From Fibrobacter sp. (GTDB taxonomy: Bacteria > Krumholzibacteriota > Krumholzibacteriia > LZORAL124-64-63), in assembly GCA_020718045.1 (NCBI GenBank), contig DYDD01000004.1:765-35756 (forward strand): 34,992 bases of DNA, in the 5' to 3' direction. The first letter of the stretch is position 1. Every line of letters begins with the position of its first letter. This document shows positions 17,486-34,992 of the stretch, in pieces. The notes beneath the pieces were generated by a model. The model did not search any database. It had not been told where the DNA came from and worked only from the letters and a program-made list of their open reading frames with translations. A program made the position numbers and the translations under genes.

Positions 17486-17489
<4 letters not shown>

Positions 17490-18703: not shown

Positions 18704-18935
18704 GTTCTGGCCACGGAATTGTCCCTGCCCATGCGGTGTTGCGACTTGGCTCCACACATCCTGCGGTGACAGGGGGCGCTCGTCGGGCACATCCTGTGCC
18801 CGACTCGCTTGGCCTTCCGGCCCTTTCGCCATCCTGGCTCCAGGGCCTGCAGGACACCCCTGTCACCACAGGATGTGTGGAGCCAAGTCGAACGGCAGCG
18901 TGGATATGGGCAGGGACGATTTCGTGGCTTGGACC
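18703..18935. mobile_element. MITE-like non-autonomous element (233 bp) with long inverted repeats and 9-bp target-site duplication
   Basis: 30-bp terminal IRs (18703-18732/18906-18935, 25/30 match), inner 34-bp IR (18742-18775/18857-18890, 33/34), internal 10-bp-stem hairpin 18782-18804, flanking direct repeats GTACGAGTA (18694-18702) and GCACGAGTA (18936-18944). Confidence 0.75.
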
Positions 18936-19018
18936 GCACGAGTAGACCATGGCCAGGATCGATGCTCGGGCCGACTTCGGGCTTGATCAGTGCCTCTGCT
19001 CTTGTACAATCCACGGAC

Positions 19019-20182: not shown

Positions 20183-20370
20183 GGGCGCCGCATGCCGGCG
20201 TGTCTTGTGAGGCACCCCGGCCAGGTCCGTGATCCGGCTAGCCTCTTCCCCGCCCGCACGATCAACGAAACCGGACATAATGTTCCGTCGGGTGCCTGCT
20301 TCGCGGCATTGCTGGATGAGGAATCCCGACGCCCGGCGTTGTGCAGGTTGACCCTGATCAGATAGGCAAC

Positions 20371-21636
20371 ATGTCTGAGCATGGCCACACATTCGGACTG
20401 AAGCGGCTCTTGCTGCGAATCCTGCTCGCGATCGCGCTGATCTGGCAATTCGGCGGCGTGCTGCTGCCCTTCCCACGCTGTAAGGTGGAGAAAATCCAGG
20501 TTGCATCCCTGATCGCCTTGGCCGTGGACCTGGATGTCGCCGGGAGGCGCATCTACCTGGACATGCACTATCCCGAGGACAAGGTGCTGCTCTGCGATCC
20601 CGGGGATGACGGGAGCAATGGCATCCCCTACGAACCCAATTATAAGATCGGTTCGCCTTTCATCGAGCCTCATCGGCGAGAGGGGGTCTTTCTGCCGTCC
20701 CCCGGGTTCCCGCTGTCGCCGGTGAAGTGTGCGCCCGAGGCTCTGGGCACGGTGCTGACCCTGTACGGCATGAGCGGCGAGGCCATGGCCCGGGTCGAGG
20801 GGAAGCCTTGGGAGAAACCGCTGCTGGACATCGCGGTACGAGGATTTCTCGGCCGGCAGGACACCCTGGCGGTGACCTACATCCCGAGGCTGCGCGTCGA
20901 GCAGTTGATTCGCGGGGAATGGATGCAATTGACTCAATTCAACATCGTGGGGATGTGGTACTACTGCGCTCCCGAGGATACGGTGCGCATCCGGATGTGC
21001 GCGGCGGCGATGAAGGCCGTGTTTCTTCGGGATCGCGTGCTGGTGAAGCCGGCGACCGAGGAAGAACGATCTGCACTCGACGTGATCGTCCGTACACCGC
21101 GCACCGAGGGCAGCGGTTGGCCCTACTACCATTCCTGGGAGTGGAAGAACGGCAAGGAGTTCTTTAAAACGTTCCAAGCGGATACGTTGTCGATCGGCGA
21201 GTGGTTCGAGTTGGATTACCCGCTTATGCCACGTACCAGGCTGTTCTCACTCGATGTGATCGTCGAATGCCGGGGATTACCCGATTATGTGCAACTAACC
21301 GAATTCCACGACCCCACACTAGCCATCCTGGGCCATGAATCACCGAACACCCTCATGCGCTGGCCGTTGGTCCCGACACCATCCGGGCTTGCGGCCGGAG
21401 ACTCCGCAGGCGTCAGCTACCCCGGCGGCTACGTCTTCCCGCGCTGGGCGTTTTTGAAGCAGCTCGAGATGGGGTTCTGGTCTGGTGGCGATGACATCAC
21501 GAACCCGAATGTCCAGCACTACAAGATTGAGATCGATCGTCGGAATGAGGAGATCCGCCGCGAGCGTCTGGCAGAGCGGGAGCGGAAACGTCGGCATGGT
21601 CCGATACCGGAAACGCCGAAACAGGACGATCAATAA
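20371..21636 (+). CDS. Hypothetical membrane-anchored protein, atypical low-GC codon usage
   Basis: Long ORF with one N-terminal TM segment; no family recognised; start uncertain. Confidence 0.55.
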   Translation: MSEHGHTFGLKRLLLRILLAIALIWQFGGVLLPFPRCKVEKIQVASLIALAVDLDVAGRRIYLDMHYPEDKVLLCDPGDDGSNGIPYEPNYKIGSPFIEPHRREGVFLPSPGFPLSPVKCAPEALGTVLTLYGMSGEAMARVEGKPWEKPLLDIAVRGFLGRQDTLAVTYIPRLRVEQLIRGEWMQLTQFNIVGMWYYCAPEDTVRIRMCAAAMKAVFLRDRVLVKPATEEERSALDVIVRTPRTEGSGWPYYHSWEWKNGKEFFKTFQADTLSIGEWFELDYPLMPRTRLFSLDVIVECRGLPDYVQLTEFHDPTLAILGHESPNTLMRWPLVPTPSGLAAGDSAGVSYPGGYVFPRWAFLKQLEMGFWSGGDDITNPNVQHYKIEIDRRNEEIRRERLAERERKRRHGPIPETPKQDDQ

Positions 21637-21678
21637 TTCTGCAATGGATGGAACTAGGGATCCCGGGCGACGGCCGGG

Positions 21679-22239
21679 CTAGTGCCGCGTCCCGGCCAAC
21701 TTCCGCCCTGCCCGCACGACCGCCGTCACCAGCCCCGCGACCAGCACCAACCCCAGCACCGGCACCAGCAGCGCGATCGCCGCCAGGGCGACGGCGCCAC
21801 CCGTCTCGGCGGCGGCGACGAACGGGTTGCCGAAGCCGGCGGTCATGACGGTCGAGAGGGCGCGCGTGCCGACCGACGCGGCCTGGACCAGGCCGGCCAG
21901 GCCGCCGCCGGCGATGATCGCCAGGGGCCAGCGGGCGTAGGGCGGCAGGTCGACGGCCACGGCGGCCATCAGCGCGGCGCCCGCGATCGCGGCGGCCGGT
22001 GTGGCGAGCGTGTCCAGGGCGTGGTCGAGCCAGGGGACGAAGTAGGCGAGGGCCTCGGCCAGGGAGGCGGTGCCGAAGATCACCAGAGCCGTGGTCGAGC
22101 CGAGCCAGCCGAATCCGGAGGCCGGCTCCAGGTGGCCGGTGTGCACGGCGATCGCCGCCAGCAGCAGCGGCACGAAGACGCGCAGGCCGGCCGCGGCGGC
22201 CAGCCCCAGCCCGAGCGTGATCCCGATCGCCGTGTCCAT
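21679..22239 (-). CDS. DUF4126-family membrane protein
   Basis: GLGLAAAAGLR.FVPLL, E.LAY.VPW.DH.LD and R..ST..TAG.GNPFV...E motifs; RBS GAGGAG. Confidence 0.8.
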   Translation of the reverse strand: MDTAIGITLGLGLAAAAGLRVFVPLLLAAIAVHTGHLEPASGFGWLGSTTALVIFGTASLAEALAYFVPWLDHALDTLATPAAAIAGAALMAAVAVDLPPYARWPLAIIAGGGLAGLVQAASVGTRALSTVMTAGFGNPFVAAAETGGAVALAAIALLVPVLGLVLVAGLVTAVVRAGRKLAGTRH

Positions 22240-22256
22240 GGTGCTCCTCGCCGGGT

Positions 22257-23594
22257 TCAGGGACGGTCGTGCGGCTCCGACGGCTCGCGCGGCTCCTGGG
22301 ATGTCTGAGACGTCTGGGGCGCGAAGAGCCGGTGCAGCGTCGCCAGGTGCTGCTGGCGCTCCTGCTCGCTCTCGGCGCTCTTGAGCGACTCCATCGAGCG
22401 ACCCAGGACCTTCTTGATGAACTGCTGCAGGCTGGCGTCGACCGCCGCGGCCACCTCGTCGGACTGCTTGCGGCGCACGTAGCCGACCTGCTTCTCCTTG
22501 AGGTCCTCGAGGTAGGCGCGGAACTCGGCCACGCTGGGGCGCAGGTCCATCTCGCGGACCCAGGCGCGGAACTCCGCCAGCTCCTCCTCGACGATGCGCT
22601 CGGCCCCGGGCAGCTGCTTGCGGCGCGCGGCGAGGTTGGACTGGACGATCTCGTCGAGGTCGTCCAGACCGAAGACATAGGTCTCGTCCACCCGCGCGAC
22701 GTCGGGATGGACATCGCGCGGGACGGCGATGTCCAGGACGTACAGCGGCCGTCCGCGGCGGCGGCGCATGGCGGCGCGCACCATCTCCGGCAGGATCACG
22801 GGCTCGAGGCTGCCGGTGGTCGAGAGCACGACGTCCACGTCGGCCAGCGCGGCGGGCAGGTCCTCCCAGGGACGCGCGCGCACGAGTTCGCCCTTGCCGC
22901 CGTTGAGGTCGTCCGCCAGGGTCCGCGCGCGCTCGGGGCTGCGGTTCACCACGATCAGGCCGCCGATGCCCTGCTGCAGGAAGTGGCGGGCCGCCAGGGC
23001 GCCGGTCTCGCCGGCGCCGACCAGCAGGGCGCGGTGCCGCGGCAGGTCGGCGAAGAACTTGCGGGCCAGTTCGACGGCGGCGAAGGCGACGCTGACCGCC
23101 CCCTCGCCGATCTTCGTCTCGGTGCGGACGCGCTTGCCGGCGCGGAACGCGCCCTGGAAGGCGCGCATGAGCACCGGGCCGAGCTCGTGGTGCTCCTTGG
23201 CCAGCCGGTAGGCGTCCTTGAGCTGGCCGGAGATCTGGGGCTCGCCCAGCATCATGCTCTCCAGGCCGGCCGACACCCGGTAGAGGCGGCGCACGGCCTC
23301 CCCGTCGGTCAGGCGCACGGCGTGCTCGCCGGTGAACAGCGAGGGGTCGAGCCCGGCGCCGGCCAGGCTGCGGGTCATGCTGTCGAAGGGCGCGAAACCG
23401 GGCAGGGCCTCGACGTAGATCTCGGTGCGGTTGCAGGTGCTGACCGGCACGGCCGAGACGAACCCCGGCTCCCGCGACAGGGCCGCCAGCAGTCCGCCCA
23501 CGCGCTCGGGGTCGATGTGCGCGCGCTCGCGCACCTCGGTCGGCGCGAGCCGGTGGTCGATCCCCCACAGGTGCAGGCCGGCGCGCCCCGCCAT
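22257..23594 (-). CDS. hemA: Glutamyl-tRNA reductase
   Basis: STCNRTE, GLESMMLGEPQI.GQ, GAGETG, NRS and DIAVPRD motifs; TGATG overlap with the upstream gene. Confidence 0.96.
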   Translation of the reverse strand: MAGRAGLHLWGIDHRLAPTEVRERAHIDPERVGGLLAALSREPGFVSAVPVSTCNRTEIYVEALPGFAPFDSMTRSLAGAGLDPSLFTGEHAVRLTDGEAVRRLYRVSAGLESMMLGEPQISGQLKDAYRLAKEHHELGPVLMRAFQGAFRAGKRVRTETKIGEGAVSVAFAAVELARKFFADLPRHRALLVGAGETGALAARHFLQQGIGGLIVVNRSPERARTLADDLNGGKGELVRARPWEDLPAALADVDVVLSTTGSLEPVILPEMVRAAMRRRRGRPLYVLDIAVPRDVHPDVARVDETYVFGLDDLDEIVQSNLAARRKQLPGAERIVEEELAEFRAWVREMDLRPSVAEFRAYLEDLKEKQVGYVRRKQSDEVAAAVDASLQQFIKKVLGRSMESLKSAESEQERQQHLATLHRLFAPQTSQTSQEPREPSEPHDRP

Positions 23595-24457
23595 CACACG
23601 CCCCCGCGCAGGCTGAAGTTGTGGAAGCTGGGGATGAAGTGGTGGATGGCGCCCATCGCCAGGACCACCGCGAGGTAGGTCAGGATCGCCAGCGTGTTCA
23701 TGCGGCGGCCGCGCCAGCCCCACCAGCGGTGGCCGGCCAGGCCCGCCAGGTAGACCAGGAAGATCAGCCAGGAGGTCAGGATCTTCGGGTCGAAGGGGGT
23801 CAGGCTGCGCGCCGTCTCGGGGTCGAGCTTGTCGGCCAGGTCGTAGAGCCACAGGTGACCCAGCGCGAGGGCCCCGAACAGCAGGGGCACGCCCAGCTTG
23901 GCCGCGCCCACGCTCATGCGCTCCAGGACCTCCAGCGGCGGCAGCCGGCGGAAGAGCAGCCCGAACGTCTTGCGGGCGAGCTGGCGCGCCAGCACCAGGT
24001 AGAGGGCCGCGTAGAGGAAGCTGAGGCTCAGCGCGGTGTACGCCAGCAGCACCAGCACGGCGTGGCCGGCGTAGCCGGGGTCCTCCAGCAGTGGGTTGGC
24101 CGCCGGTTCGGCGATGGAGAACGCGCTGGCGATGAACTGCAGCAGGAACGCCACGCCCGTGACCAGGAACCCCGTCTCGCGCACGCGCAGACGGCGTTCG
24201 ACCACGGCGTAGATCAGCAGCAGGGACAGCGCCAGCAGCGACAGGAACTCCAGGGGCGAGGCCATCGGCAGGTGGTGGTGTACCCGCGCGTGGATGACGG
24301 ACGCCGCAAGGTGGGCCACCACGGTCGTCGCGAGCAGCCGCCGCGCCCAGCGGTGGGCGAACTTGCGGTTCTCGTAGAAGACCCACAGGTAGGCCACGAA
24401 GAGCAGCAGGTACAGCAGCGGTAGCAGGACCTCGCCCACCGTCAACGCGAGCCTCAT
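23594..24457 (-). CDS. CcsA/HemX-like cytochrome c assembly family membrane protein
   Basis: About 8 TM helices, HLP, H...L.Y, LPPLE.LE and DPK...W..Y motifs; lacks the full WGxxWxWD signature; ATGA overlap. Confidence 0.8.
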   Translation of the reverse strand: MRLALTVGEVLLPLLYLLLFVAYLWVFYENRKFAHRWARRLLATTVVAHLAASVIHARVHHHLPMASPLEFLSLLALSLLLIYAVVERRLRVRETGFLVTGVAFLLQFIASAFSIAEPAANPLLEDPGYAGHAVLVLLAYTALSLSFLYAALYLVLARQLARKTFGLLFRRLPPLEVLERMSVGAAKLGVPLLFGALALGHLWLYDLADKLDPETARSLTPFDPKILTSWLIFLVYLAGLAGHRWWGWRGRRMNTLAILTYLAVVLAMGAIHHFIPSFHNFSLRGGV

Positions 24458-25935
24458 GCCGCCCCTCCTTCGACGCGGGGACCGGCCGCCGCCAGCCGGT
24501 CGAGCACGGCGGCGGCCATGGTTTCGGATTCCTTGATGCAGGCGTTGACCGACACGCCGCGGTACGAGCTGCCGGACAGGTGCAGGCCCGGCAGGGCGGC
24601 GAGCCGCGTCTCCATTCGGCGCAGGCGGTCGAGGTGGCCGGGTTCGTACTGGGCGATGGCCCGCGGGTGGCGGAACACCCGGGTCATCACGGGGTTGTCG
24701 CGCAGGCCCATCAGCCCGCGCAGCTCGGCGACGGCGCGGTCCCGCAGGGCGTCGTCGCCGTCGTCCAGGACGTGCGGGTCGCCCGGACCGCCGGCCATGC
24801 AGTGCAGCAGGACCCGGCCGTCCGGCGCGCGGCCGGGGAAGATGCTGCTGGTCCACAGGGCGCCCAGCAGGCGGCTGTGTTCGCAGGTGGGGATCAGCGC
24901 GCCGAAGCCGTCGAGGTCGTGCGCCACGTCGCCGCGCGCGTAGCCCAGGGCGATCACGGCCATCGGCACGTAGGGGATGCCGTCCAGCAGGCCGGACAGC
25001 GCGGGGTCGAGCTCGCGCAGGTGGGCGGCGGCCGCGTGGGCCGGCGCGGCGTGGACGACGGCGTCGGCGTCGAAGGATGCGCCCTCGTCGACCCGCACGC
25101 GCCAGACCGCGCCGTCGCGGCTGATCGACGCGACCGCGCGGCCCGTGACGAGGGAGGCGCGCGGATCGTCGCGCAGGGCCCGCGCCAGGGCGGCGGGCAG
25201 CGCCGCCATGCCGTCACGGAAGGAATGCAGGGTGCCGGAGGGGCCGGCATCGGCGGCCCGCTTGCGCTGCTTCGAGATCGCCGCGAGCGCGCGGAACAGG
25301 CTGCCGTGGTCGCGCTCCAGCTCGACCATCCGCGGGAACGCGGCCGCGAGGCTGAGCCGGCGGGCGTCGCCGCCGAAGATGCCCTTGACCATCGGGTCGA
25401 GCATCAGCTCCGCGAAGTCGCTCCCCAGGCGCCGGCGCCCGAACTCCCAGACCGACTCGTCGGTGGCGGGATCGTCGGCGGCGCGGCCCAGGTCCCGCCG
25501 GCGCGGCACCAGGAGTTCGCCCAGCACGCGCAGCTTGGCGCGGGGGGTGAACAGATCGGTCTTGAGGAAGGCGAGCGGCGAGGCGGGGATCTCGCGCAGG
25601 CGGCCGCCGACCACCAGGAAGCGGCGCCGGGCCGCGTCGCTGCTGCGCACCAGCTCGTCGTGCAGGCCCAGGCGGTCGACCAGGCGCAGCGTCGCCGGCT
25701 CGTTGTCCAGGAAGCCGTTGGGGCCCCACTCCAGGCGCCAGCCGTCGTGGACGCTGGTGCGCAGGTTGCCGCCGACCTGCGGCGCGGCCTCCAGGACGTC
25801 GACCCGCAGGTCGAGCCCGCGCGCCGTCGCCCCCTCCAACAGCCGCAGGGCCGTGGCCAGGCCCGACACCCCGCCGCCGACCACGACCGCGCGCCGCGCG
25901 TTCCCTTGCAGCTTCGTCGTGACCTGCTCAGTCAA
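24454..25935 (-). CDS. hemY: FAD-dependent protoporphyrinogen/coproporphyrinogen oxidase (HemY type)
   Basis: VVGGGVSGL, E....GG, E.GPNGF, GIFGGD...LS...FP, GFG.L and AI.QY..GH motifs; TTG start overlapping the hemH stop. Confidence 0.93.
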   Translation of the reverse strand: MTEQVTTKLQGNARRAVVVGGGVSGLATALRLLEGATARGLDLRVDVLEAAPQVGGNLRTSVHDGWRLEWGPNGFLDNEPATLRLVDRLGLHDELVRSSDAARRRFLVVGGRLREIPASPLAFLKTDLFTPRAKLRVLGELLVPRRRDLGRAADDPATDESVWEFGRRRLGSDFAELMLDPMVKGIFGGDARRLSLAAAFPRMVELERDHGSLFRALAAISKQRKRAADAGPSGTLHSFRDGMAALPAALARALRDDPRASLVTGRAVASISRDGAVWRVRVDEGASFDADAVVHAAPAHAAAAHLRELDPALSGLLDGIPYVPMAVIALGYARGDVAHDLDGFGALIPTCEHSRLLGALWTSSIFPGRAPDGRVLLHCMAGGPGDPHVLDDGDDALRDRAVAELRGLMGLRDNPVMTRVFRHPRAIAQYEPGHLDRLRRMETRLAALPGLHLSGSSYRGVSVNACIKESETMAAAVLDRLAAAGPRVEGGAA

Positions 25936-27016
25936 GGGTCGCCTCCGCGCGGAAGGGGTCGCCGGCCAGGCGCGCCGCCAGCGAGGCGAGCCAGGTCTCG
26001 TCGAGGTTGAGCGCGGCGCCGCGGTCGAATTCGCGCACGCCCAGCTCCTCGGCTTCGCGACGCAACTCGCGGTCGAGTTCGTGCAGCGTCTCGATGTGCT
26101 CGCAGGTGAAGCTGACCGGCTGCACCAGCAGCCGGCGGCAACCGGCTCCGGCCAGGCGCCGCGTCTCGGCCGTGATCTCGGGGCCGAGCCACTTGATGGG
26201 GCCGACCTTGCTCTGGAAGGCCAGCAAGGGCGCGGGCCCGCCCGGCAGTCGGGCCAGCCAGGCGGCGTGGCCGTCCGCGGCGAGGGCCGTGCGCACGCGC
26301 TCGTGGACGGCGCTGACCGTGGCGCGGGTCTGGCTGAGGTATGGGTCCCCGCGCTTGATGAAGCTCTCGGGCAGGGAGTGCGCCACGTAGATCAGGGCGC
26401 ACTGCTGCGGGTCGGCGCCCTCGTCGGCCCAGCGTCGCAGGCCGCGGCCCGCGTTGGCGGCCAGCGTCGCGACGAAGCCGTCCAGCAGATGCCAGGCCTC
26501 GATCACGTGGACCGCGGTGCCGGGGGCGAGGCGGTCCAGCGACCGCTGCACGAAGGACAGCGTGCTGCCGTTGGTGGCGTCGGAGTACTGGGGGTACATC
26601 GGCAGGACCAGGAACTGCTCGGCGCCGCGCTCGCGCAGCCCGCGCACGGCCTCGTCGGGAAAGGGCCGCCAGTAGCGCATGGCCGGCAGCGCGATCGTCG
26701 GCCTGCCGGCTTCGCCCAGCAGCGCGGCCAGCCGGTCCCCCTGGGCGCGGGTGGTCGGGACCTGCGGCGAGCCGCCGCCGAGCCCCATCTCGAGGTACCG
26801 CCGGCGCACGGCTGGCGCGCGCCGCCAGGCGATCAGGCGGCCCAGGAGCGGGGAGAGCAGGCGCGGGATGGGGATGATCTGCGGGTCCTGGAACAGGTTG
26901 CGCAGGAAGGGCTGCACCGCGTCGGGCCCGTCGGGCCCGCCCATGCCGCACAGGATCAGGCCCGTGGTCCGGGCCGGGTCGAGGTGGTCCTGCCGGAAGC
27001 GACGCGGTGCGGTCAT
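25928..27016 (-). CDS. hemH: Ferrochelatase
   Basis: MGGPD...V.PFL.NLF.D, GGSP, MRYW.PF, PMYPQYS, AHSLP, GDPY, FQSKVGP..WL.P and EHIETL.ELD motifs. Confidence 0.95.
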   Translation of the reverse strand: MTAPRRFRQDHLDPARTTGLILCGMGGPDGPDAVQPFLRNLFQDPQIIPIPRLLSPLLGRLIAWRRAPAVRRRYLEMGLGGGSPQVPTTRAQGDRLAALLGEAGRPTIALPAMRYWRPFPDEAVRGLRERGAEQFLVLPMYPQYSDATNGSTLSFVQRSLDRLAPGTAVHVIEAWHLLDGFVATLAANAGRGLRRWADEGADPQQCALIYVAHSLPESFIKRGDPYLSQTRATVSAVHERVRTALAADGHAAWLARLPGGPAPLLAFQSKVGPIKWLGPEITAETRRLAGAGCRRLLVQPVSFTCEHIETLHELDRELRREAEELGVREFDRGAALNLDETWLASLAARLAGDPFRAEATLD

Positions 27017-27023
27017 CCTCGCC

Positions 27024-28400
27024 TCAGATGGTCTTGGAGAACAGGGGTTTCCCGCTCGTGCGGTCCAGGTAGGCGTCGAACTCCATGCACAGGTTGCGCA
27101 CGAAGAAGCGTCCCAGGTCGGTCACGCGCACGCGGTCGGGCAGGAACTCCACGAAGCCCTCGTCCTGGTAGGGGAGCAGGCGGGCCAGCCCGTCGGCCAG
27201 CAGCTCGTCCGCCGGCGCGCCGAAACCGGGCACGGTCAGCGCGTAGGGCAGCTCCAGGTTGCACATCAGGTTCAAGATCGCCAGGCGCCGCAGGCGGTCG
27301 TCGTCGCTGAGGCGGTGCCCCTTGACGACCGGCAGGTGGCCGGCGTCGACCGCGTTCTGGTAGCCGTCGAGCTCGGCGTCGTTCTGGACGAAGCGGTCGC
27401 ACACGTCGCCGATGCCGCTCATGCCGAAGGCCAGCATGTGGGGCGCCGGGCGCGTCGTGTAGCCCATGAAGTTGCGGTGCAGGCGCCGCTCCCGCAGCGC
27501 GACGGCGAGCTCGTCGTCGCGCCGGGCGAAGTGGTCGATGCCGATCCAGTCGTAGCCGGCCTCGGCGAACAGGTCGATCGCCAGGCGGAACAGCTCGAAC
27601 TTCTCGAAGCCCGACGGCATGTTGTCGGTGTTGATGAGCTTCTGCCGCGGGCGCACCCAGGGCACGTGGGCGTAGCTGAAGCAGGCCACGCGGTCGGGTC
27701 CCTGTTCGATGATGTCGCTCAGGGTGCGAGCGAAGGAGTCGCGCGTCTGCTCCGGCAGGCCGTAGACGAGGTCGAGGTTGACGCCCTCGTAGCCGGCCTC
27801 GCGGCAGGCGTGGTACAGCTCCAGCGTGCGGTCGCGCTTCTGCAGGCGGCCGATGGCCTTCTGCACCGCGGGCTCGAAGTCCTGCACGCCCAGGCTGATG
27901 CGGTTGAAGCCCTGCGCCCGCAGGAAGCGCGCCTGCTCGGGCGTGCCGATGCGCGGGTCGACCTCGATCGAGACCTCGCCCCGCGGGTCGACGGCGAAGG
28001 CGGCGCGCAGCAGCCCCAGCGCGCGCTCGACCTGCGGGTCCTTGAGGAAGTTGGGCGTGCCGCCGCCCCAGTGCAGTTGCACGACGCGCCGGCCCGGACC
28101 CAGCACGTCCACCACCGCGGCCAGCTCGCGCTCGACGCGGTCGAGGTAGGCGTCGACGGCGCCCTTCTCGGTGGAGACGACGGCATTGCAGCCGCAGTAG
28201 TGGCAGTGCTTGGCGCAGAAGGGCAAGTGCAGGTAGACCGACAGCTCGTCGCCGGGCCGCGCCGCCAGCTCGCGCAGCGCCGCGCGGAAGTCGTCCTCGC
28301 CGAAGCCGCTCGTCCAGGCCGGCACCGTCGGGTAGCTTGTGTACCGGGGGCCCGGCTTGTCGTGCTTCTCGAGAAGGTTGCGCGGCACGTCCAGGGCCAT
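27024..28400 (-). CDS. hemN: Oxygen-independent coproporphyrinogen III dehydrogenase (radical SAM)
   Basis: GPRYTSYPT, YLHLPFC...C.YCGC, HWGGGTP, IGIDHFA, LHRNFMGY motifs and FSKTI C-terminus. Confidence 0.96.
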   Translation of the reverse strand: MALDVPRNLLEKHDKPGPRYTSYPTVPAWTSGFGEDDFRAALRELAARPGDELSVYLHLPFCAKHCHYCGCNAVVSTEKGAVDAYLDRVERELAAVVDVLGPGRRVVQLHWGGGTPNFLKDPQVERALGLLRAAFAVDPRGEVSIEVDPRIGTPEQARFLRAQGFNRISLGVQDFEPAVQKAIGRLQKRDRTLELYHACREAGYEGVNLDLVYGLPEQTRDSFARTLSDIIEQGPDRVACFSYAHVPWVRPRQKLINTDNMPSGFEKFELFRLAIDLFAEAGYDWIGIDHFARRDDELAVALRERRLHRNFMGYTTRPAPHMLAFGMSGIGDVCDRFVQNDAELDGYQNAVDAGHLPVVKGHRLSDDDRLRRLAILNLMCNLELPYALTVPGFGAPADELLADGLARLLPYQDEGFVEFLPDRVRVTDLGRFFVRNLCMEFDAYLDRTSGKPLFSKTI

Positions 28401-28401
28401 C

Positions 28402-29439
28402 TCAGTCCCCCTCGCGGTACGCCTGCACGGTCGCGACCAGGGTCTCGACCGCGTCCAGGGGCGCCTCCGGCAGGATGCCGTGCCCGAGGTTGAAGACGTG
28501 GCCGGCGGCGTCGCGGCCGGCGCGGCAGATCTCCAGCGCGCGGCGGCGGATCTCCTCGTGGCTGCCGAACAGGCACAGCGGGTCCAGGTTGCCCTGCACG
28601 GCCCGGCCGGGATAGGCGCGTGCGGCGACCGCCAGGTCGAGCGTCCAGTCCACGCCGAACGCCTCGGCGTCGAGCGTGCGCACGTGGTCGAGGTAGGGGG
28701 CGCTGCCCTTCAGGAAGTAGACGCGGGGCACGCCCGCGCCCTTCAGGCCGGTCAGGATCCGCCGCAGCCCGGGCATGATGATGCGCTCGTAGTCCTGCGG
28801 GTGCAGGATGCCGCCCCAGGTGTCGAAGATCTGGACCGCATCGACGCCCGCCTCGACCTGCATCAGCAGGTAGTCGGTGATCTGGTCGGCGAGCTTGTCC
28901 AGCAGGCGCGACAGCAGCGCCGGGTCGGAGTAGAGCATCGCCTTGAGGTGCCGGTAGTCCTTGGAACCGCCGCCTTCGATCATGTAGGCCGCCAGCGTGA
29001 ACGGCGCGCCGGCGAACCCGATCAGGGGCGTGCGGTCCCCGAGCTCGCGCTTGATCATCCGCACGGCCTCGGCCACGTAGCCGGTGTGCTCGCGCGAGTC
29101 GACGACGCGCAGGGCGTCCACGTCGGCCGCCGCGCGCACGGTGTGGTGCATGCGCGGGCCGTGGTCGTCGAAGGAGAAGGGGGCGCCCATGGGCTCCAGC
29201 GGCACCAGGATGTCGCTGAACAGGATGGCCGCGTCGAAGCCGAAGCGGCGGATCGGCTGCAGGGTGACCTCGCAGGCCAGCTCCGGCGTCTTGCAGAGGC
29301 CGATGAACGAGGTCTTCTCGCGCACGGCGCGGTACTCGGGGAGGTAGCGGCCCGCCTGGCGCATGATCCAGATCGGCGTGCGCTCGTGCGCCTCGCGACG
29401 CAGGGCGGACAGGTAGGGGAGATGCTGCAGCGTGTCCAT
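28402..29439 (-). CDS. hemE: Uroporphyrinogen decarboxylase
   Basis: PIWIMRQAGRYLPEYR, DAAILFSDIL, LIGFAGAPFTLA.Y, QGNLDP and FNLGHGI motifs. Confidence 0.97.
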   Translation of the reverse strand: MDTLQHLPYLSALRREAHERTPIWIMRQAGRYLPEYRAVREKTSFIGLCKTPELACEVTLQPIRRFGFDAAILFSDILVPLEPMGAPFSFDDHGPRMHHTVRAAADVDALRVVDSREHTGYVAEAVRMIKRELGDRTPLIGFAGAPFTLAAYMIEGGGSKDYRHLKAMLYSDPALLSRLLDKLADQITDYLLMQVEAGVDAVQIFDTWGGILHPQDYERIIMPGLRRILTGLKGAGVPRVYFLKGSAPYLDHVRTLDAEAFGVDWTLDLAVAARAYPGRAVQGNLDPLCLFGSHEEIRRRALEICRAGRDAAGHVFNLGHGILPEAPLDAVETLVATVQAYREGD

Positions 29440-29536
29440 CGTGTCTCCGGGATGGGGCCGCCGCTGCGGGGCGGCGCCGGGGCGCGGTCGACCGCCGCGC
29501 GCCGGGAGGAAATCTAGTCGCGAAACCGGCGAATTG

Positions 29537-29553
29537 TGTCACGGAGACGTCAT
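29537..29553. promoter_or_regulatory. Candidate operator upstream of hemE, shared with the NHL/omcS promoter
   Basis: TGTCACGGAGACGTCAT, 15/17 identical to 32004-32020; GTCAY half-sites with 11-bp period. Confidence 0.55.
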
Positions 29554-29610
29554 GTCGGCGGATTTTCGGGGACGGCGGAGCCGGGTCAGCGGCCGCGGGA
29601 GTCCCGGCTT

Positions 29611-29647
29611 GAGAAACGGGCCCCGCACCGTCCTGGTGCGGGGCCCG
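29611..29647 (-). terminator. Rho-independent terminator downstream of the omcS-like gene
   Basis: Perfect 13-bp stem CGGGCCCCGCACC/GGTGCGGGGCCCG (29617-29647) followed on the - strand by TTTCTC. Confidence 0.75.
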
Positions 29648-29691
29648 CCGGATTGTCGCGATCACCCGGCTGGGGCCGGGTAGGCGTCGGA

Positions 29692-30813
29692 TCAGGGCGC
29701 CGTGTAGGGAGCGTCGCCGAAGTCCTTCACGTGGCACTTGTTGCACAGCGACCGCTGGTTGGTCACCAGGGTGTAGCCGTAGTCCTTGTTCGCCACGTCG
29801 TCGGCCGAGGCGCCGGTGTCGGTGGCCAGCGGGTGCGAGCTGATCAGGTGCGTGGACGTGAAGTCCCAGCGGCCGGCGTCCGCGAAGGGCGACGCGTGCG
29901 AACGGTGGCAGGTCAGGCACATGACCTGGTCTCCGGCCACGGGGCCCTGGGTGTAGTTCAGGGGGTCGATGGCTTCGAGGTCGACGTTGACGGCCTCGAA
30001 GGGCACCAGACCGCGGTACGAGGTGGCGGGGTCGCCGCCGGTGGTCTGGTCGGTGCTGATGTAGGCGTTGTAGGTCGCCACGACCAGGCTGCTCATGTCC
30101 TCGCCCGTCGGGTGCACGAAGTCGGTGGTGTTGCCGGCATGCAGGTCGGTGTGGCAGTTGGCGCACCACTCGCTCATGCCCGACTTGTACACGGTGTGCG
30201 AGAGGTCGGTCTCGGGCACGCCCGAGGGGCTGTTGCCCAGGGTGCGGCGGCTGTTGCCCAGGGCGATCGGGGCGGGGCTGTCGAAGTTGTAGCGGGCGCC
30301 GCCGTAGATCGGGCCGGCGCTCTCGTCGCCGTAGAGCAGACGGTAGTTCTGGTTGCCGTGCGGGTCGTGGCAGCTCGTGCAGGTCAGGTACTGGCTGTCG
30401 AAGTCGCCGCCGGGGGCCGCGGCCAGGACGGGATCCCGGACGATGCCGTAGGCCGGCGAGATGACGTTGTGGCCGTGGGTGTAGCCCTGACGGGAGCCGG
30501 CCCGGGGCGTGGTCCACGAGAAGGTCTTGGTGATCCAGTAGAAGTCGCCGCCGGCGCCCCAGCCGAAGCCGCCGGCGAGCTGGCCGTACGCGGCGTGGCA
30601 GCGCAGGCAGGTGTCGCTGGCGTTGCCGTTGTTCAGCAGGTAGGCGTTGCCCGTGGGGTGATTGACGTCCACGAGGGCGCCGTTCTGGCTGTTGTGCATG
30701 GTGTGGCAGCCGGCGCAGTAGGCCACGCCGCCGTCGTGGAACGCCAAAGCGGCGCCGCTGCTCAGGGCGAGAGCCAGGACGATGGTTGCGGAGATCAACA
30801 GTTTGTGTTTCAC
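29692..30813 (-). CDS. OmcS-like secreted hexaheme c-type cytochrome (nanowire family)
   Basis: Signal peptide ALA|FHDGGVAYCAGCHTMHNS; 6 CxxCH; blocks GGDFYWITKTFSW, GHNV, APGG..LTCTSCHDPHG, GMSEWCANCHTD, VMCLTCHRSHAS and QRSLCNKCHVKD match my recollection of G. sulfurreducens OmcS; GTG start with RBS GGAGG. Confidence 0.9.
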   Translation of the reverse strand: MKHKLLISATIVLALALSSGAALAFHDGGVAYCAGCHTMHNSQNGALVDVNHPTGNAYLLNNGNASDTCLRCHAAYGQLAGGFGWGAGGDFYWITKTFSWTTPRAGSRQGYTHGHNVISPAYGIVRDPVLAAAPGGDFDSQYLTCTSCHDPHGNQNYRLLYGDESAGPIYGGARYNFDSPAPIALGNSRRTLGNSPSGVPETDLSHTVYKSGMSEWCANCHTDLHAGNTTDFVHPTGEDMSSLVVATYNAYISTDQTTGGDPATSYRGLVPFEAVNVDLEAIDPLNYTQGPVAGDQVMCLTCHRSHASPFADAGRWDFTSTHLISSHPLATDTGASADDVANKDYGYTLVTNQRSLCNKCHVKDFGDAPYTAP

Positions 30814-30990
30814 AGAATCGCCTCCGAGTTGTGCCGGCGGGCGAGGCCGCCGGTTGGGGTTGAGCTGGCGACCGGGTCGCCGCGACCGTGCTTCGCGCCG
30901 GCCGCCACTTCATCCGACGAGGACCAGGACCACTGCCGATACCGGAACATGCTGACAATCCGTGCGGCCCCGCGCGGGCGGAGCCTCCCT

Positions 30991-31914
30991 CTACTCTCCT
31001 GCTTCCGTGCTGAAGATCCCGAAAGCCTGGACGCGCCCTTCGTAGCCTTGGGCCACCAGGATGCGACCGGGCGTCGCGGCGATGGCCAGGGGGTGGTAGA
31101 GCTGCCCCGGCGCGCCGCCGAACGATCCGAATTCCGACGTGAAGTTGAAGTCTCGGTCGTAGACCAAGACCGTGTGCCGCATGCGGTCCAGGACCAACAC
31201 CTCGTCGGCGGGTCCGAACGCGACGCCGACGGGGAAGGCGAGGCGCCCCGGGCTGGTGCCGGGGCGGCCGAAGGAGCCGGCGTCCGCGCCTTCGGCCGTG
31301 AGGACCAGCACGACGTGCAGCTCGCCGCCGGGAACGAAGAGACGGCCGTCGGGCGCTTCGGCGGGCCGGCCGAGTTCCGACTGTTCAGTGACGCCTTCGA
31401 GGGCGCGGTGCCAGAGCACGCGGCCGGTCGCGGCGTCGTGCTTGGTCAGCGTGCCGGCGCGCTTGTCGAGGGACATATAATGGCCGTCGGCGGTGACGAT
31501 CAGGTGGTCGGGCTGCCATTGCGGCGCGGGCCGTTCGACATCGAAGCGCACCGGTTCGCCGTGCAGGTCGAGCTTGCGCAGCGTGCGCTCCCCGGCGGCG
31601 TCGCGGTCGGCGAAGACGAAACCGCCGTCACGGTCCAGGCAGCCGTCGGCGGGGGTCGAGAGGGAGGCGGCGATACTGCTGGTGAACAGGGTGATCCCGT
31701 GTCCATCGACCACATGGAAGCACACGCCCCGCTCGTCGGTGACGCACACGTCGCCGGTCGCCGGGTCGACGCTCAGAGCGATGGGGCGGACATGGCCGGA
31801 TGTTCCCACGCCCAACTGCAGCATGCCCTCGTAGCGATAAGCGATCGTTCCTTTCGCCGCGAGCGGGCAAAGGAACAGCGTCAGGGCGGTGCAGATTGCA
31901 AGGCATCTTGTCAT
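30991..31914 (-). CDS. Secreted NHL-repeat beta-propeller protein
   Basis: Signal peptide; FG..G..PG.L.FP.GVA and FGSFGGAPGQLYHP.AIA NHL repeats; ATG 31914 preferred over the upstream GTG. Confidence 0.85.
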   Translation of the reverse strand: MTRCLAICTALTLFLCPLAAKGTIAYRYEGMLQLGVGTSGHVRPIALSVDPATGDVCVTDERGVCFHVVDGHGITLFTSSIAASLSTPADGCLDRDGGFVFADRDAAGERTLRKLDLHGEPVRFDVERPAPQWQPDHLIVTADGHYMSLDKRAGTLTKHDAATGRVLWHRALEGVTEQSELGRPAEAPDGRLFVPGGELHVVLVLTAEGADAGSFGRPGTSPGRLAFPVGVAFGPADEVLVLDRMRHTVLVYDRDFNFTSEFGSFGGAPGQLYHPLAIAATPGRILVAQGYEGRVQAFGIFSTEAGE

Positions 31915-32003
31915 GGGGCTGTCACCGAATCTGTTGGTGGATTCACAGCGAGGGCGAGTCGGAGTCGCAAGCAACGCTGTTGTTGTCACCCATTGTGAAC
32001 GCT

Positions 32004-32020
32004 TGTCACGGAGATATCAT
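32004..32020. promoter_or_regulatory. Candidate operator overlapping the -10/start region of the NHL/omcS promoter
   Basis: TGTCACGGAGATATCAT, 15/17 identical to 29537-29553. Confidence 0.55.
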
Positions 32021-32045
32021 AGCGGTTCTGTTACTAATCCGTCAA
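32016..32045 (-). promoter_or_regulatory. Sigma70-type promoter for the NHL-omcS-like unit
   Basis: - strand TTGACG-N18-TATGAT within an AT-rich intergenic island. Confidence 0.7.
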
Positions 32046-32132
32046 AGGCAAAGTGAAGTGAACGATGTCATATTGCGAACAATCTTCATTTTTGACAATA
32101 AATGCCAAAATCGACATTTTGGAGTTGAGATG

Positions 32133-32159
32133 AAAAACCGGCCCCCTCGCGGGGGCCGG
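32133..32159 (-). terminator. Rho-independent terminator after the giant cytochrome
   Basis: - strand CCGGCCCCC-GCGA-GGGGGCCGG-TTTTT (GNRA loop). Confidence 0.88.
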
Positions 32160-32203
32160 CCTGTTAAAATAGTATCCGGATTGTCGGTCTCTGGTCCCGA
32201 CGA

Positions 32204-34992
32204 TCAGCGCTTCTCGCGGATCTTCTCGGTGTGACATCCGATGCACAGCTTCCCGCCGGCATCCTCCCGGAGGACCTTTTCGAACTCAGAGCCGTGAGGG
32301 TCGTGGCAACTGGAGCAGACGATCTCGCCGCCATGGACCGGATCCGTCGTGCCGGCGCCCAGAGGGTGGTCGGTGTGCTCCTGCCAGGTGTGGCAGCGCA
32401 GACAGGGGTCGGGACCGGCGGGTGCCGACCCGGGAGCGCCTACGGCGGCATGGGGGTTGTGGCACATCGTGCACTGACGGCCCTCGGGATCGGGGTGCCG
32501 GTGGCTCGACGACTTCATGCGCTCGGCCTGCTCGGCGTGGCAGCGTCCGCAGACGGCGACCTGGCTGCGGGGCAGCAGGTTGGACACCGGCGAGGCGTGG
32601 GGAGTGTGGCACTCCAGGCAGGCCCGCTCGCCCGCAAGCGGGGCGTGGAGGGTCGCGCCCTTGAGTTCCTCGGCCAGACCGGGATGGCAGGCCAGGCACA
32701 GGCGCTTTTCGGCTCCCGTCTGCACCTTGCCGCCGGCGTCGTGGCAAGCCTTGCAGTCGCGCTTGGCGTACGGCTGGTGGACGTGCCCGTGCGTCAAACC
32801 GGCGTGCGTGCTGGCGTGCGGATCGTGGCAGGCCATGCAGTCGGCCGTCCCGAGATCGAAGTTCAAGTGCGGTTTGGCCAGCGCGGCGCCCGCGAGGTCG
32901 TGGCAGGTCGCGCAGAGGGCGGGCACCGCCTTGGACAGGAGATCCGCTTGGTCCGTGCCGTGGGCGTCGTGGCAGGTGGCGCACTTCCCGTCGGCGAACG
33001 GTTGGTGCCGCCTCGGCAGCGACTGGGCCGTTTGCAGGTCCTGGTGACAGGTCCAACAGAGAGCCGTGCGCGCCGTGCGCAGCAGGGCGGGCTGGTCCGA
33101 GCCGTGGGGATCGTGGCATGCGGCGCAGTCGCCGTCGCGGGCGGGCCGGTGGGCCAGATCCGCCCGGGGGAACAGCGTGCCGCCGCCGTGGCAGACCGCG
33201 CAGGCGGCGCCGACGCCGCCGGCTTTCAACAAGTGCTCGCCGCGGGCGGCGTGGGCGTCGTGGCAGGCGCTGCACTCGCCGTCGTCGAAGGGGGCGTGGG
33301 GGTGTTTGCGCGTCGCCGTCAGCCCGTCGTGGCAGCCGGCGCACAGCGCCTTCTGGTCGGCGATGGGCGCGGGGCCGTCGTGGCAGGTCGCGCAGTCACG
33401 GTCGTCGAAGGGCGGGTGCGAATTCGGCCGGATCAGCGCCGCCTGCGTCGAGTGGTGCGGCGCGTGGCAGCCGGTGCAGTCCAGCCCGAGGAGGTCGCGC
33501 CCGAGGTGGGCGCCCTTCAGGGCGTCGTCGTTCTCGTCGTGGCAGCGGAAGCAGAGCTCGGTCGCCGGCGCCGCCAGTAGCGAGGGCTGCGCGCCGCCGT
33601 GCGGGAGGTGGCAGGTCGTGCAGTCGTCCTGGATCGGGGGATGGACCGACTTGGCCGCCGCGACGTCGACGATGTCGTTGTGGCAGATCGTGCAGAGCAG
33701 GGGCTCCGGTGCGGAGAGCAGGTCGCCGCGAGCCGCGCGGTGGGCGTCGTGACAGGCCGTGCAGTTGCCGGCGGCGACCGGCGCGTGCGCGTGGCCGCCG
33801 GCGCCCGGGCCGGTGTCGTGGCAGACCAGGCAGATCTCCGCAGCCGGGCGGCGCAGCATGGCGACCTCGTCGCCGCCGTGGGGGCGGTGACAGTCGCCGC
33901 AGAGGCCGTCCGCGACGGGCGGGTGCAGGCTGCCCCCCTCGGGGCGGACGGCCTGGTCGGCGTGGCAGGCCAGGCAAGTCGCCGCGGGCGTCGTCTTCAA
34001 CAGCGATGGCTGATCGGCGCGGTGCGGCACGTGGCAGGCCAGGCAGTCGCCGCGCGCCGCCACATCGTGGGGATGGGAGGTGACGAGCTCGACCTTGACC
34101 TTGAGGTGGCAACCGAGGCAGAGGGTCCCGGCCTTGGCGGTCAGCAGGCCCGGTTCGGTCGAGCTGTGCGGGTCGTGGCAGGCGGAACAGTCCCTCTTGA
34201 CGAAGGGCGTGTGGTCCGAAACGGCGGCGGCCGCACCGTCGTCGATCTCGCTGTGGCAACCGAGGCACAGTTCTCCGGGCTGTGCGGTCAGCAGCGCGGC
34301 CCGTTCGCCGCCGTGGGCGTCGTGGCAGGCGGCGCAGTCGCCCCCGGCGACCGGTGCGTGGACCACGTTGCGGCGGAACGGATCGTCCCCGTGGCACCCG
34401 AAACAGAGTCGGCGCAGTTCGGTCCTGATCATCCCGGAGTGCGCGCTGCCATGGGCGGCGTGGCAGTCCAGGCAGGAGCCGTCGGCGACGGGGGCGTGGG
34501 GCGTCGCGGCGCCGGCGCCGGGCTGGTCGTGGCAGGACAGGCACAGGTCGTTACCCTGGGCGACCAGCGCGGTGCGGCCGTCGGCGTCTTTCACGTGGCA
34601 GGCGGCGCAGTCGCGGTCCCGGACGGGCGCGTGCTGCACGGCCAGCAGGAGCTTCGACGCGTCGGCGCTGTGGGGGTCGTGGCAGGACGTGCAGCCGACG
34701 GTCGCGTCCGCGTCGCCGTGCGCCTGCGCGAGCTTGCGGACATCGCGGTGGCAGGACAGGCAGAGGGCGTCGACGGCGACGTCCAGCAGATGCGGCTCGG
34801 CGCTGCCGTGGGGCCGGTGGCAGGCGGCGCAGCCCTGCTTCTTCAGCGGGGCGTGGACGAACGCGCGCGAGAAAGCGGCGCTGTCGTGGCAGGTCAGGCA
34901 GGACGCGTCGCCCTTCGCGGGCAGCAGGTCCGGCTGTCCGCTGCCGTGGGGGTCGTGGCAGGCGACGCAGCCGCCGTCCCGCACCGGCGGGT
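32204..34992 (-). CDS. Giant multiheme cytochrome c with doubled-CXXCH repeats (5'-truncated, at least 39 hemes)
   Basis: 39 CxxCH motifs counted in 926 aa; repeating H.P....CxxCH.PH.S....LL......LCxxCH unit; frame open to the window edge. Confidence 0.95.
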   Translation of the reverse strand, partial: PPVRDGGCVACHDPHGSGQPDLLPAKGDASCLTCHDSAAFSRAFVHAPLKKQGCAACHRPHGSAEPHLLDVAVDALCLSCHRDVRKLAQAHGDADATVGCTSCHDPHSADASKLLLAVQHAPVRDRDCAACHVKDADGRTALVAQGNDLCLSCHDQPGAGAATPHAPVADGSCLDCHAAHGSAHSGMIRTELRRLCFGCHGDDPFRRNVVHAPVAGGDCAACHDAHGGERAALLTAQPGELCLGCHSEIDDGAAAAVSDHTPFVKRDCSACHDPHSSTEPGLLTAKAGTLCLGCHLKVKVELVTSHPHDVAARGDCLACHVPHRADQPSLLKTTPAATCLACHADQAVRPEGGSLHPPVADGLCGDCHRPHGGDEVAMLRRPAAEICLVCHDTGPGAGGHAHAPVAAGNCTACHDAHRAARGDLLSAPEPLLCTICHNDIVDVAAAKSVHPPIQDDCTTCHLPHGGAQPSLLAAPATELCFRCHDENDDALKGAHLGRDLLGLDCTGCHAPHHSTQAALIRPNSHPPFDDRDCATCHDGPAPIADQKALCAGCHDGLTATRKHPHAPFDDGECSACHDAHAARGEHLLKAGGVGAACAVCHGGGTLFPRADLAHRPARDGDCAACHDPHGSDQPALLRTARTALCWTCHQDLQTAQSLPRRHQPFADGKCATCHDAHGTDQADLLSKAVPALCATCHDLAGAALAKPHLNFDLGTADCMACHDPHASTHAGLTHGHVHQPYAKRDCKACHDAGGKVQTGAEKRLCLACHPGLAEELKGATLHAPLAGERACLECHTPHASPVSNLLPRSQVAVCGRCHAEQAERMKSSSHRHPDPEGRQCTMCHNPHAAVGAPGSAPAGPDPCLRCHTWQEHTDHPLGAGTTDPVHGGEIVCSSCHDPHGSEFEKVLREDAGGKLCIGCHTEKIREKR

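Follow-up and report, generated by a model that had tools for sequence, protein, structure and literature searches.

In Geobacter sulfurreducens, the hexaheme cytochrome OmcS is associated with an osc operon in which, in the passages of the source covered here, OscH is assigned to folding, OscE-G to secretion, and OscD to morphology, while OscI and OscJ are periplasmic cytochromes (PMC13194489). Here, we describe a related locus in a DNA stretch of 34,992 nucleotides (hereafter the window; G000:C3:765-35756) from a metagenome-assembled genome (MAG; 3.24-Mb, 431 contigs, 70% GC, 92% complete) of an uncultured bacterium from groundwater, in which the cytochrome genes are nested among the heme-biosynthesis (hem) genes and share a promoter box with them; contig C3 extends 10 kb past the right edge of the window. 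As far as those passages describe the Geobacter system, the likeness lies in an OmcS-like hexaheme subunit accompanied by a propeller, a peptidyl-prolyl isomerase (PPIase), secretion parts, and large periplasmic cytochromes. Unlike in the Geobacter osc operon, the genes here stand in a permuted order, NHL-OmcS coming after the barrel, PPIase, and giant cytochrome genes; a single 41-42-heme protein represents a fusion of the 26-heme and 16-heme cytochromes; and the cluster stands inside a heme-biosynthesis supercluster with a common promoter box. In the Desulfuromonadales MAG loci L145, L175, and L177, the OmcS gene is separated by a gap of 6.6-8.0 kb from a 26-heme cytochrome; an NHL gene precedes in L175 and L177, and a PPIase match occurs only in L177. 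The designation osc-type is made by gene-content outline, the sequence comparison being with these Desulfuromonadales loci (22-39% identity).

Another closely related case is the OmcE nanowire cluster found in Desulfuromonadia as an insertion in a region of conserved synteny beside resB/ccsB (10.1101/2025.10.22.684050). As described in the passages covered, it resembles the present locus in its propeller lipoproteins, multiheme cytochromes, large beta-barrel, and fixed chromosomal slot beside genes handling heme for c-type cytochromes, but its neighbors are cytochrome maturation genes and not the tetrapyrrole pathway, its subunit OmcE has four hemes, and those passages report no shared regulatory motif. 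On the side of heme synthesis, the hemAXCDBL cluster of Bacillus and Staphylococcus, in which HemX, of the PF01578 family, holds down the level of glutamyl-tRNA reductase (PMC5801465, covered in part), likewise has a gene for a PF01578-family membrane protein beside hemA within a clustered early heme pathway; here, however, all nine steps are clustered, hemX-hemA stands at the 3' end, and the host belongs to a Gram-negative lineage with many c-type cytochromes. OmcS genes in Krumholzibacteria were reported in 2021 (PMC7914226, covered in part), and the spread of osc clusters has likewise been published. A literature search that did not include Shen et al. 2025 (Cell Chem Biol) and supplements, which may bear on the claim, found no account of an omcS cluster inside a hem biosynthesis cluster, of the fused 42-heme form, or of the box.

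The promoter box itself is reminiscent of the operators of OmpR/PhoB-family regulators, such as the pho box, in that it has two half-sites with an 11-nt period, lies near or overlaps a promoter, and has a winged-helix (Trans_reg_C) regulator encoded nearby. The half-site sequence resembles the pho box only loosely, and the box is a putative operator.

Results

The only heme pathway of the cell is split by a cytochrome cluster

From position 21679 to the right edge, the window contains ten genes, all on the minus strand and arranged in three units (Table 1), which were identified with Pfam and NCBIfam. The original prediction had described ten co-directional genes in three units separated by two terminators, and the coordinates, all ten gene identities, and the folding scores of both terminators agree with it, as does its figure of at least 45 heme sites, 39 CXXCH motifs being counted in the visible part of the giant cytochrome and 6 in the OmcS-like protein. 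Past the window, contig C3 continues through the remaining cytochrome-associated genes and, beyond a 7-heme cytochrome gene, carries hemL, hemB, and hemD and ends within hemC, retaining only the 3' part of this gene; its 5' 129 codons are found at the end of contig C223. Since 129 + 185 codons match the 313-aa HemC of G002, a genome of the same genus, contigs C223 and C3 very likely abut. On these two contigs, the protoporphyrin-dependent pathway is complete (hemA, L, B, C, D, E, N, Y, and H), in the order hemC-D-B-L, osc cluster, hemE-N-H-Y-hemX-hemA, with the osc cluster at the hemL/hemE junction, and a search of the whole assembly revealed each of the nine genes in a single copy. These genes are the only heme pathway of the cell, split by the cytochrome cluster, and we hold the anatomy and nesting of the locus as described here to be as good as certain. 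The hem genes had been predicted to be the module's own heme supply. Because they are the only copies in the assembly, they are not a private supply, and because they flank the cytochrome genes on both sides, the cytochrome cluster is to be seen as an insert in a housekeeping hem supercluster.

The gene beside hemA, for which either ccsA or hemX had been suggested, encodes a PF01578 protein of 287 aa, and its stop overlaps the hemA start; the pairing with hemA is conserved in the family. Its score of 49.9 bits against TIGR03144 (CcsB) falls short of the equivalog cut-off of 187.6, and a stronger PF01578 match (133.4 bits) lies on contig C115 within a 1083-codon open frame. By these two measures the protein resembles HemX, and a HemX-type modulator of HemA seems to fit better than a heme lyase. 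No cytochrome maturation genes were found near the locus, so that, of the genes expected past the right edge, the PPIase and a porin-like barrel are present and the maturation genes are not found nearby. The open reading frame (ORF) of the 7-heme cytochrome (L004:6419-7324, plus strand) overlaps the 3' end of the convergent hemL (stop at L004:7207, minus strand) by ~117 nt; the overlap is similar in G002, and the overlapping tail is of low complexity and may not be translated.

An 18-nt box is shared by the hemC, hemE, and NHL-omcS promoters

The 11-mer TCTCCGTGACA, found upstream of both hemE and the NHL gene, occurs three times in the assembly, the third occurrence being upstream of hemC on C223. 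The box around it, RTGAYR-N5-GTGACAM, consists of two TGAC-type direct half-sites 11 nt apart and has exactly three matches in the 3.24-Mb assembly (hemC, hemE, and NHL-omcS) versus 0-2 in ten shuffles. As the pattern was derived from this genome, its independent support is the conservation in other genomes. The seven genomes of the genus contain 25 matches, versus 0 for a reversed control pattern, and 24 of these are upstream of hemC or hemE or at NHL; the remaining one (G005:C86:15347-15364, locus L188) precedes, by ~60 nt, a signal-peptide ORF truncated at the end of its contig. Across 91 genomes of the family, 117 matches were obtained versus 21 for the control, with perfect matches numbering about 1-6 per genome in 61 of the 91.

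For scoring by gene, the 260 nt upstream of each start were scanned with a threshold of >= 11 of 13, some genomes being represented twice among the loci. The box was found upstream of hemC (query, the full-length gene from G002) in 22 of 29 loci, 73-127 nt from the start and 85 nt before it in 4 genus loci checked; three of the low-scoring hemC loci belong to clusters led by hemA. It was also found at hemE in 24/54 loci and at NHL in 19/41, 14 of the latter 23-72 nt upstream; a second NHL site in the genus overlaps the start codon and may partly reflect coding sequence. At hemA, the three clusters that this gene leads all carry the box, and these three are all that reach the threshold among 43 hemA loci. 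No site was found at the operon-internal genes hemY (0/51), hemN (0/53), hemL (0/36), and hemB (0/35), nor upstream of OmcS (0/96) or PPIase (0/27), and one was found upstream of the giant cytochrome (1/68). The NHL box TATGATATNTCCGTGACAAG is nearly identical in the genus (G001-G006), in G007, and in loci L112, L113, and L114; because G007 and L112-L114 have the osc cluster away from the hem genes, the shared element is older than the nesting and independent of it. Furthermore, hemC and hemE have CTAGATT in common about 20 nt downstream of the box.

Twenty further perfect sites were sampled in 10 other genomes. Four precede multiheme cytochrome genes (10, 4, 11, and 4 CXXCH), two precede OmpR-type regulators, and one a DegP-like protease; three precede one small uncharacterized protein, one a 159-aa ORF, and one a 372-aa secreted or lipoprotein-like protein with a weak Pfam match only, while three are inside genes and five have no called ORF. 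The shared box probably signifies co-regulation.

A kinase/regulator pair encoded near hemC

On the hemC strand of C223, a histidine kinase is encoded together with an OmpR-type response regulator (PF00072 Response_reg + PF00486 Trans_reg_C; 3052-2363, minus strand). The two genes lie some 2 kb upstream of hemC, from which a single Peptidase_C10 gene separates them. Direct-repeat half-sites 11 nt apart suit winged-helix response regulators of this type. The pair is the assembly's best match to the one located between hemL and hemE in G012, the two regulators being 52% identical, whereas full-length matches elsewhere are <= 40% and receiver-domain-only matches reach 43%. Orthologues of the pair (regulator identity 49-78%) stand upstream of hemC in G019, G054, G048, and G049, directly upstream of hemE in G010 and G021, and between hemL and hemE in G012, G014, G020, and G107; most other hem loci were fetched with too little upstream sequence to judge their presence. 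In G012, G014, and G020 (L085-L087), the cluster begins with hemA, which has the box. Three Ignavibacteria MAG loci (L128, L129, and L134, ~5.8-7.5 kb) with type-B clusters (see below) and no hem genes nearby have an orthologous histidine kinase/OmpR-type pair immediately before the 7-heme, NHL, and OmcS genes, and these regulators are 48-50% identical to that of C223. It is possible, with considerable doubt, that the C223 regulator is the binder of the box.

Two forms of the cluster and the origin of the nesting

Scanning one genome per species with the OmcS protein gave a wide sample of 80 loci with 10-kb flanks, in which two cluster forms can be distinguished besides many loci with an OmcS gene alone. 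Type A, that of this family, consists of the barrel, a secreted protein of no assigned family, PPIase, one fused 41-42-heme cytochrome, and then NHL-OmcS. In type B, found outside the family in MAGs labelled Ignavibacteria, Zixibacteria, Calditrichaeota, Desulfuromonadales, Desulfobacteraceae, Polarisedimenticolia, and others, NHL-OmcS is followed by 5-8 kb of other genes, in some cases with a PPIase match, and then by two cytochrome frames. Among 14 loci examined, these frames carry 26 and 16 CXXCH in 7 of 11 type-B loci, exceptions being L160 (26 and 14) and L143 (17 and 16), and just the 26-heme frame was recovered in three Desulfuromonadales loci. The family-level relatives are mostly labelled Candidatus Krumholzibacteriia, some being labelled Gemmatimonas sp., Fibrobacteraceae, or Eisenbacteria.

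OmcS orthologues of 91-95% identity are present in all six other genomes of the genus (g1), where the run from barrel to OmcS is directly followed by hemE-N-H-Y-hemX-hemA and, after hemA, the DUF4126 gene, as far as the contigs reach; in G001 and G002, the 7-heme gene and hemC-D-B-L were found across the osc cluster from hemE. With the genome of the window included, the nesting is seen in 7/7 genomes. A second copy of the whole osc-hem locus in G004 (contig C30, L125) has fragmented genes and three in-frame TGA codons in hemE; its appearance is that of a strain variant or of a duplicate contig rich in errors and not of a genuine duplication.

The wider family was surveyed through 40 hemE loci from 40 other genomes, of 78 with a hemE match, chosen mostly for longer contigs and genus spread. 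An osc cluster is upstream of hemE in four: in G048 and G049 (genus g10) it is of type A, with hemL-B-D-C beyond; in G019 a paralogous type-B cluster lies between hemL and hemE; and in G053 a type-B cluster abuts hemE, the contig ending before any hemL. Six other loci have different inserts of 712-3211 nt at the hemL/hemE junction, comprising a Fic-like gene (G087), a sensor-type gene with a small monoheme protein (G088), 712 nt in G054, and the above kinase/regulator pair in three, and seven have no hemL within the stretch fetched, two of them contig ends. In the third g10 genome, G015, the OmcS gene and hemE are both at contig ends. In G012, G014, G013, G007, G023, and G008, a type-A cluster occurs at another place in the genome, with a second OmcS paralogue after it. 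Of the wide sample, 5/80 loci have hem genes <=10 kb from the OmcS gene, namely four of the genus and G107, which has a type-B cluster directly after hemY. The hem-omcS adjacency, which the original prediction left to be checked in relatives, is therefore shared by the whole genus and a second genus and is not family-wide; its absence from relatives, which that prediction named as a ground for refutation, is not what was observed. For co-expression, also named there, the common promoter box offers indirect support.

PPIase, giant cytochrome, NHL, OmcS, and barrel were combined in one tree (27 rows, quick IQ-TREE, LG+G4), where a branch with 100% SH-aLRT separates the 10 nested g1 and g10 clusters from 17 clusters located elsewhere; the nested type-A state therefore arose once. 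In a tree of hemE+N+H+Y (48 rows), g10 groups with g13, which has no island, and the type-A and type-B labels each need 2 changes; both trees are quick ones without bootstraps, and the composition of several rows is unusual. The type-A nesting has persisted while two genera diverged to 64% OmcS identity. Taking type A, type B, and G107 together, osc clusters became neighbors of hem genes at least twice, probably three or more times. Co-transfer with the hem genes was considered for G019 and G053, whose hemE is 78-79% identical versus the typical 65-68%, and was set aside, as the hem tree places these island-bearing genomes with the islandless G017. An ancestral double island, hemL-[type B]-cyt7-[type A]-hemE, would fit both present layouts and is no more than our guess; no genome carrying both islands was found.

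Proteins of the osc-type cluster

The OmcS-like protein, predicted as such and matching the OmcS structure 6EF8 in phmmer, aligns in two stretches (query residues 25-364 against chain residues 1-407) and has six CXXCH motifs at residues 33, 69, 145, 217, 299, and 357, a number found in 120 of 122 near-full-length homologue matches (high-scoring segment pairs) from all loci fetched. His40, in the sequence CHTMH, aligns with OmcS His16, a ligand to a heme in the neighboring subunit, and is His in 117 of those 122. Removal of the signal peptide would leave a mature FHDGGV aligned with FHSGGV of OmcS. With these features, the protein may polymerize into an extracellular filament. Two further OmcS paralogues are present in the assembly (C304:30-956 and C298:18296-19273; 61% and 45% identical by HMMER); the latter is within a 690-codon open frame, and a 9-mer of the box occurs at C298:7414.

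The osc-like companions that had been predicted, an NHL propeller and a large multiheme cytochrome, are part of a fuller set containing the 7-heme cytochrome, a 736-aa barrel, a secreted protein, PPIase, the 41-42-heme cytochrome, NHL, and the OmcS-like protein; NHL propeller, PPIase, beta-barrel, and giant cytochrome all adjoin the OmcS gene, and the NHL gene is always directly upstream of it in related loci. The whole frame of the giant cytochrome encodes about 1030 aa with a signal peptide and 41 CXXCH. It contains a 54-nt gap, an N run at L004:758-811 just past the right edge of the window, which probably hides one further motif, there being 41 here versus 41-42 in orthologues. Upstream on the same strand follow a 450-aa PPIase (Rotamase_2) and, beside it, the secreted protein, which has no Pfam or NCBIfam family match and whose probable start is an internal Met with a signal-like stretch after it. 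The 736-aa protein ends in WSF and likewise has no Pfam or NCBIfam family match; its model (14-sequence alignment, mean pLDDT 82.6) is a large antiparallel beta-barrel with a beta-sandwich inserted at about residues 290-435, and the top Foldseek match is MtrB of the Mtr complex (6r2q_B, E 5.9e-10). The TM score being only 0.31-0.34, the modelled protein is called just a large outer-membrane beta-barrel. The insert, which carries an invariant residue run (D280-N328; gene at L004:4071-6281, minus strand), could serve the filament or the giant cytochrome as a docking site. The divergent gene of the 7-heme cytochrome lies beyond the barrel gene on the opposite strand.

The companion set is kept in 13 family genomes (6 of g1 plus G012, G014, G013, G015, G007, G023, and G008, the contig of the last showing only NHL and two OmcS genes) and also in G048 and G049. 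In G004 (L038), the barrel and the secreted protein are 42% and 34% identical to those of the window's locus, versus 68% for PPIase, 82% for the giant cytochrome, 81% for NHL, and 94% for OmcS, and these figures suggest replacement of the outer-membrane part of the cluster.

Transcription units, features of the window, and expression data

Terminators 3' of the giant cytochrome gene and of omcS divide the three units into separate transcripts. The former terminator has a 12-bp GC stem plus a U-run, and none of 200 shuffles folds as well; for the latter, 1/200 does. A consensus terminator scan listed neither and gave 2 sites versus 3.1 expected, both on the other strand. The NHL-OmcS spacer has no hairpin better than shuffles (z +1.15), so that NHL and OmcS form one unit. 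The NHL gene likely starts at the ATG at 31914, which gives a signal-like N-terminus; the longest ORF begins at the GTG at 31989.

Table 1 Features of the window from position 21679 to its right edge
Feature	Position	Strand	Evidence
DUF4126 membrane protein, last gene of hem unit	21679-22239	-	PF13548 E 1.1e-44
hemA, glutamyl-tRNA reductase	22257-23594	-	GlutR_N, Shikimate_DH, GlutR_dimer domains
HemX-like membrane protein, cytochrome c assembly family	23594-24457	-	PF01578 E 1.3e-20
hemY, protoporphyrinogen oxidase	24454-25935	-	TIGR00562 290 bits vs 97.85 cut-off
hemH, ferrochelatase	25928-27016	-	PF00762 E 1.8e-84
hemN, oxygen-independent coproporphyrinogen III oxidase	27024-28400	-	TIGR00538 499 bits vs 325 cut-off
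hemE, uroporphyrinogen decarboxylase, leads hemENHY-hemX-hemA unit	28402-29439	-	PF01208 E 2e-128
18-nt box ATGACGTCTCCGTGACAC	29536-29553	-	97 nt upstream of hemE ATG
Intrinsic terminator 3' of OmcS-like gene	about 29646-29618	-	-38.2 kcal/mol, z -3.52, then U-run
OmcS-like hexaheme cytochrome, 373 aa with signal peptide	29692-30813	-	phmmer E 4.2e-44 to 6EF8
NHL-repeat beta-propeller	30991-31914 (longest ORF to 31989)	-	PF01436; E 2.5e-29 to NHL-domain structures
18-nt box ATGATATCTCCGTGACAA, NHL-omcS promoter	32003-32020	-	first half-site overlaps -10 hexamer
Sigma-70-like promoter TTGACG-18-TATGAT, AT-rich spacer, upstream of NHL	32016-32045	-	10/12 consensus match only
Intrinsic terminator 3' of giant cytochrome gene	about 32162-32135	-	-27.7 kcal/mol, z -4.15, then UUUUU
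Giant multiheme cytochrome, 3' 928 codons; 5' end outside window	32204-34992	-	19 Paired_CXXCH_1 stretches, E 2e-196

An aquifer metatranscriptome, X2, holds 67% of sampled words, with contigs 99-100% identical to the window; such RNA contigs cannot show transcript starts, ends, or levels, and none among the matches listed spans either terminator. The RNA libraries X22 and X23 gave 1 and 3 pieces, and those of X20, mostly 95-99% alike, are partial, have many chimeric joints, and probably derive from other organisms. Beside the DUF4126 gene, the region 18809-21636 of the window has a GC of 0.63-0.67 versus about 0.72 and two plus-strand ORFs of 457 and 431 aa, one with a weak Peptidase_MA_2 match (E 4.8e-4, below cut-off) and the other with no match; it may be foreign DNA.

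Discussion

The results described above place an osc-type cytochrome cluster inside the single hem supercluster of its host, with a common box at the hemC, hemE, and NHL-omcS promoters. In the mechanism that we propose, a single regulator would recognize the 18-nt box of these three promoters and adjust tetrapyrrole synthesis, up or down, in parallel with the filament subunit, of which every molecule would take six hemes and which would be made in bulk; the most likely binder would be the OmpR-type response regulator of the C223 pair, and the nesting may have been favored because regulator and targets sit together. The roles of the box as operator and of this regulator, the polymerization of the OmcS-like protein, and the advantage of proximity are all inferred steps, and we consider the explanation as a whole to be evenly poised between right and wrong. 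A stronger form, which we advance tentatively and rate somewhat below an even chance, is that a two-component system dedicated to heme economy matches tetrapyrrole transcription to filament output, its regulon in relatives including other multiheme cytochrome genes, and that the osc cluster was drawn into the hem cluster beside the regulator.

A considerable number of observations weigh against this coupling. The strong terminators isolate the units, so that adjacency itself gives no co-transcription, and X2 contigs cover all 30 bins of window 15000-34992 at similar depth, with DNA carry-over being possible. The count of three boxes in the assembly is partly by construction, the pattern having been derived from these very sites, and the unit unknown736-PPIase-giant cytochrome is without a box. 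Among the g10 loci, none reaches 11 upstream of NHL; in G042, G013, G041, and G046, hemC leads the cluster, yet the box score is just 9 of 13; and no box-like element was seen by eye between the regulator and cytochrome genes of the three Ignavibacteria loci. At NHL, the first half-site coincides with a -10-like TATGAT, so that part of the box could be promoter and not operator. With regard to the nesting, hemL stands 20-183 nt upstream of hemE, uninterrupted, in 23/40 family loci, at least six genera keep the osc cluster away from the hem genes, and the hemL/hemE junction is a permissive site that also takes unrelated inserts.

This last property keeps alive the reading of the nesting as a neutral accident, in which an osc cluster landed once at an insert-tolerant operon boundary and was inherited, with no special regulatory link between hem and cytochrome genes. 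It would account for the other inserts at the junction in 6/40 family loci, for the single origin of the nested type-A arrangement, for the insulation of the units by terminators, and for the lack of hem genes within 10 kb in most of the family and in 75/76 wide-sample OmcS loci outside the genus. It would leave unexplained why the box occurs at hemC, hemE, and NHL-omcS and almost nowhere else in seven genomes, and why two paralogous osc clusters came to the same junction in different genera and a third to a place after hemY in G107, which is hard to obtain by chance among thousands of intergenic sites; moreover, the arrangement survived the divergence of two genera in OmcS. We therefore regard a neutral origin as rather unlikely, though to be taken seriously.

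The function of the box and that of the OmcS-like protein are also subject to other interpretations. If the box were a core promoter element, belonging to an alternative sigma factor or to a lineage-specific -10/-35, the three promoters would be just of the same class, and the TATGAT within the NHL half-site, the fairly fixed distance from the hemC start, and the CTAGATT shared by hemC and hemE would follow naturally. The scarcity of perfect matches, far too few for a general promoter class, together with direct repeats whose spacing suits winged-helix response regulators and a conserved kinase/OmpR-type pair that travels with the hem genes, makes this interpretation quite improbable. That the OmcS-like protein forms no extracellular filament here, serving instead as a monomer in the periplasm or at the surface, for example in iron oxidation or other redox chemistry, is slightly more doubtful than the neutral origin: a Krumholzibacteria MAG with OmcS also carried Cyc2, and the role was left open in the part of that report covered (PMC7914226), and the present assembly has three OmcS paralogues. 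Against it stand the full-length homology to a filament subunit, the six heme motifs, and the His aligned with OmcS His16, as well as companions (propeller, PPIase, barrel, and 26+16-heme cytochromes) that match the osc outline as published in the passages covered (PMC13194489).

The coupling of heme synthesis with the filament subunit, if true, would represent a supply-and-demand regulon for c-type cytochrome nanowires, undescribed in the literature searched. Little is understood of how heavy producers of multiheme cytochromes adjust heme synthesis to demand, and the matching of heme supply to demand also limits cytochrome nanowire production in other hosts. The locus offers a testable handle on this problem, with three promoters, one 18-nt box, one candidate regulator, and the pathway and filament genes within about 45 kb. 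In addition, it adds to the osc-type OmcS machinery a distinct form, marked by a 42-heme fusion cytochrome and a rearranged order of genes, in a lineage that is probably Krumholzibacteria, and it shows that OmcS clusters have come to lie within or beside hem clusters on more than one occasion.

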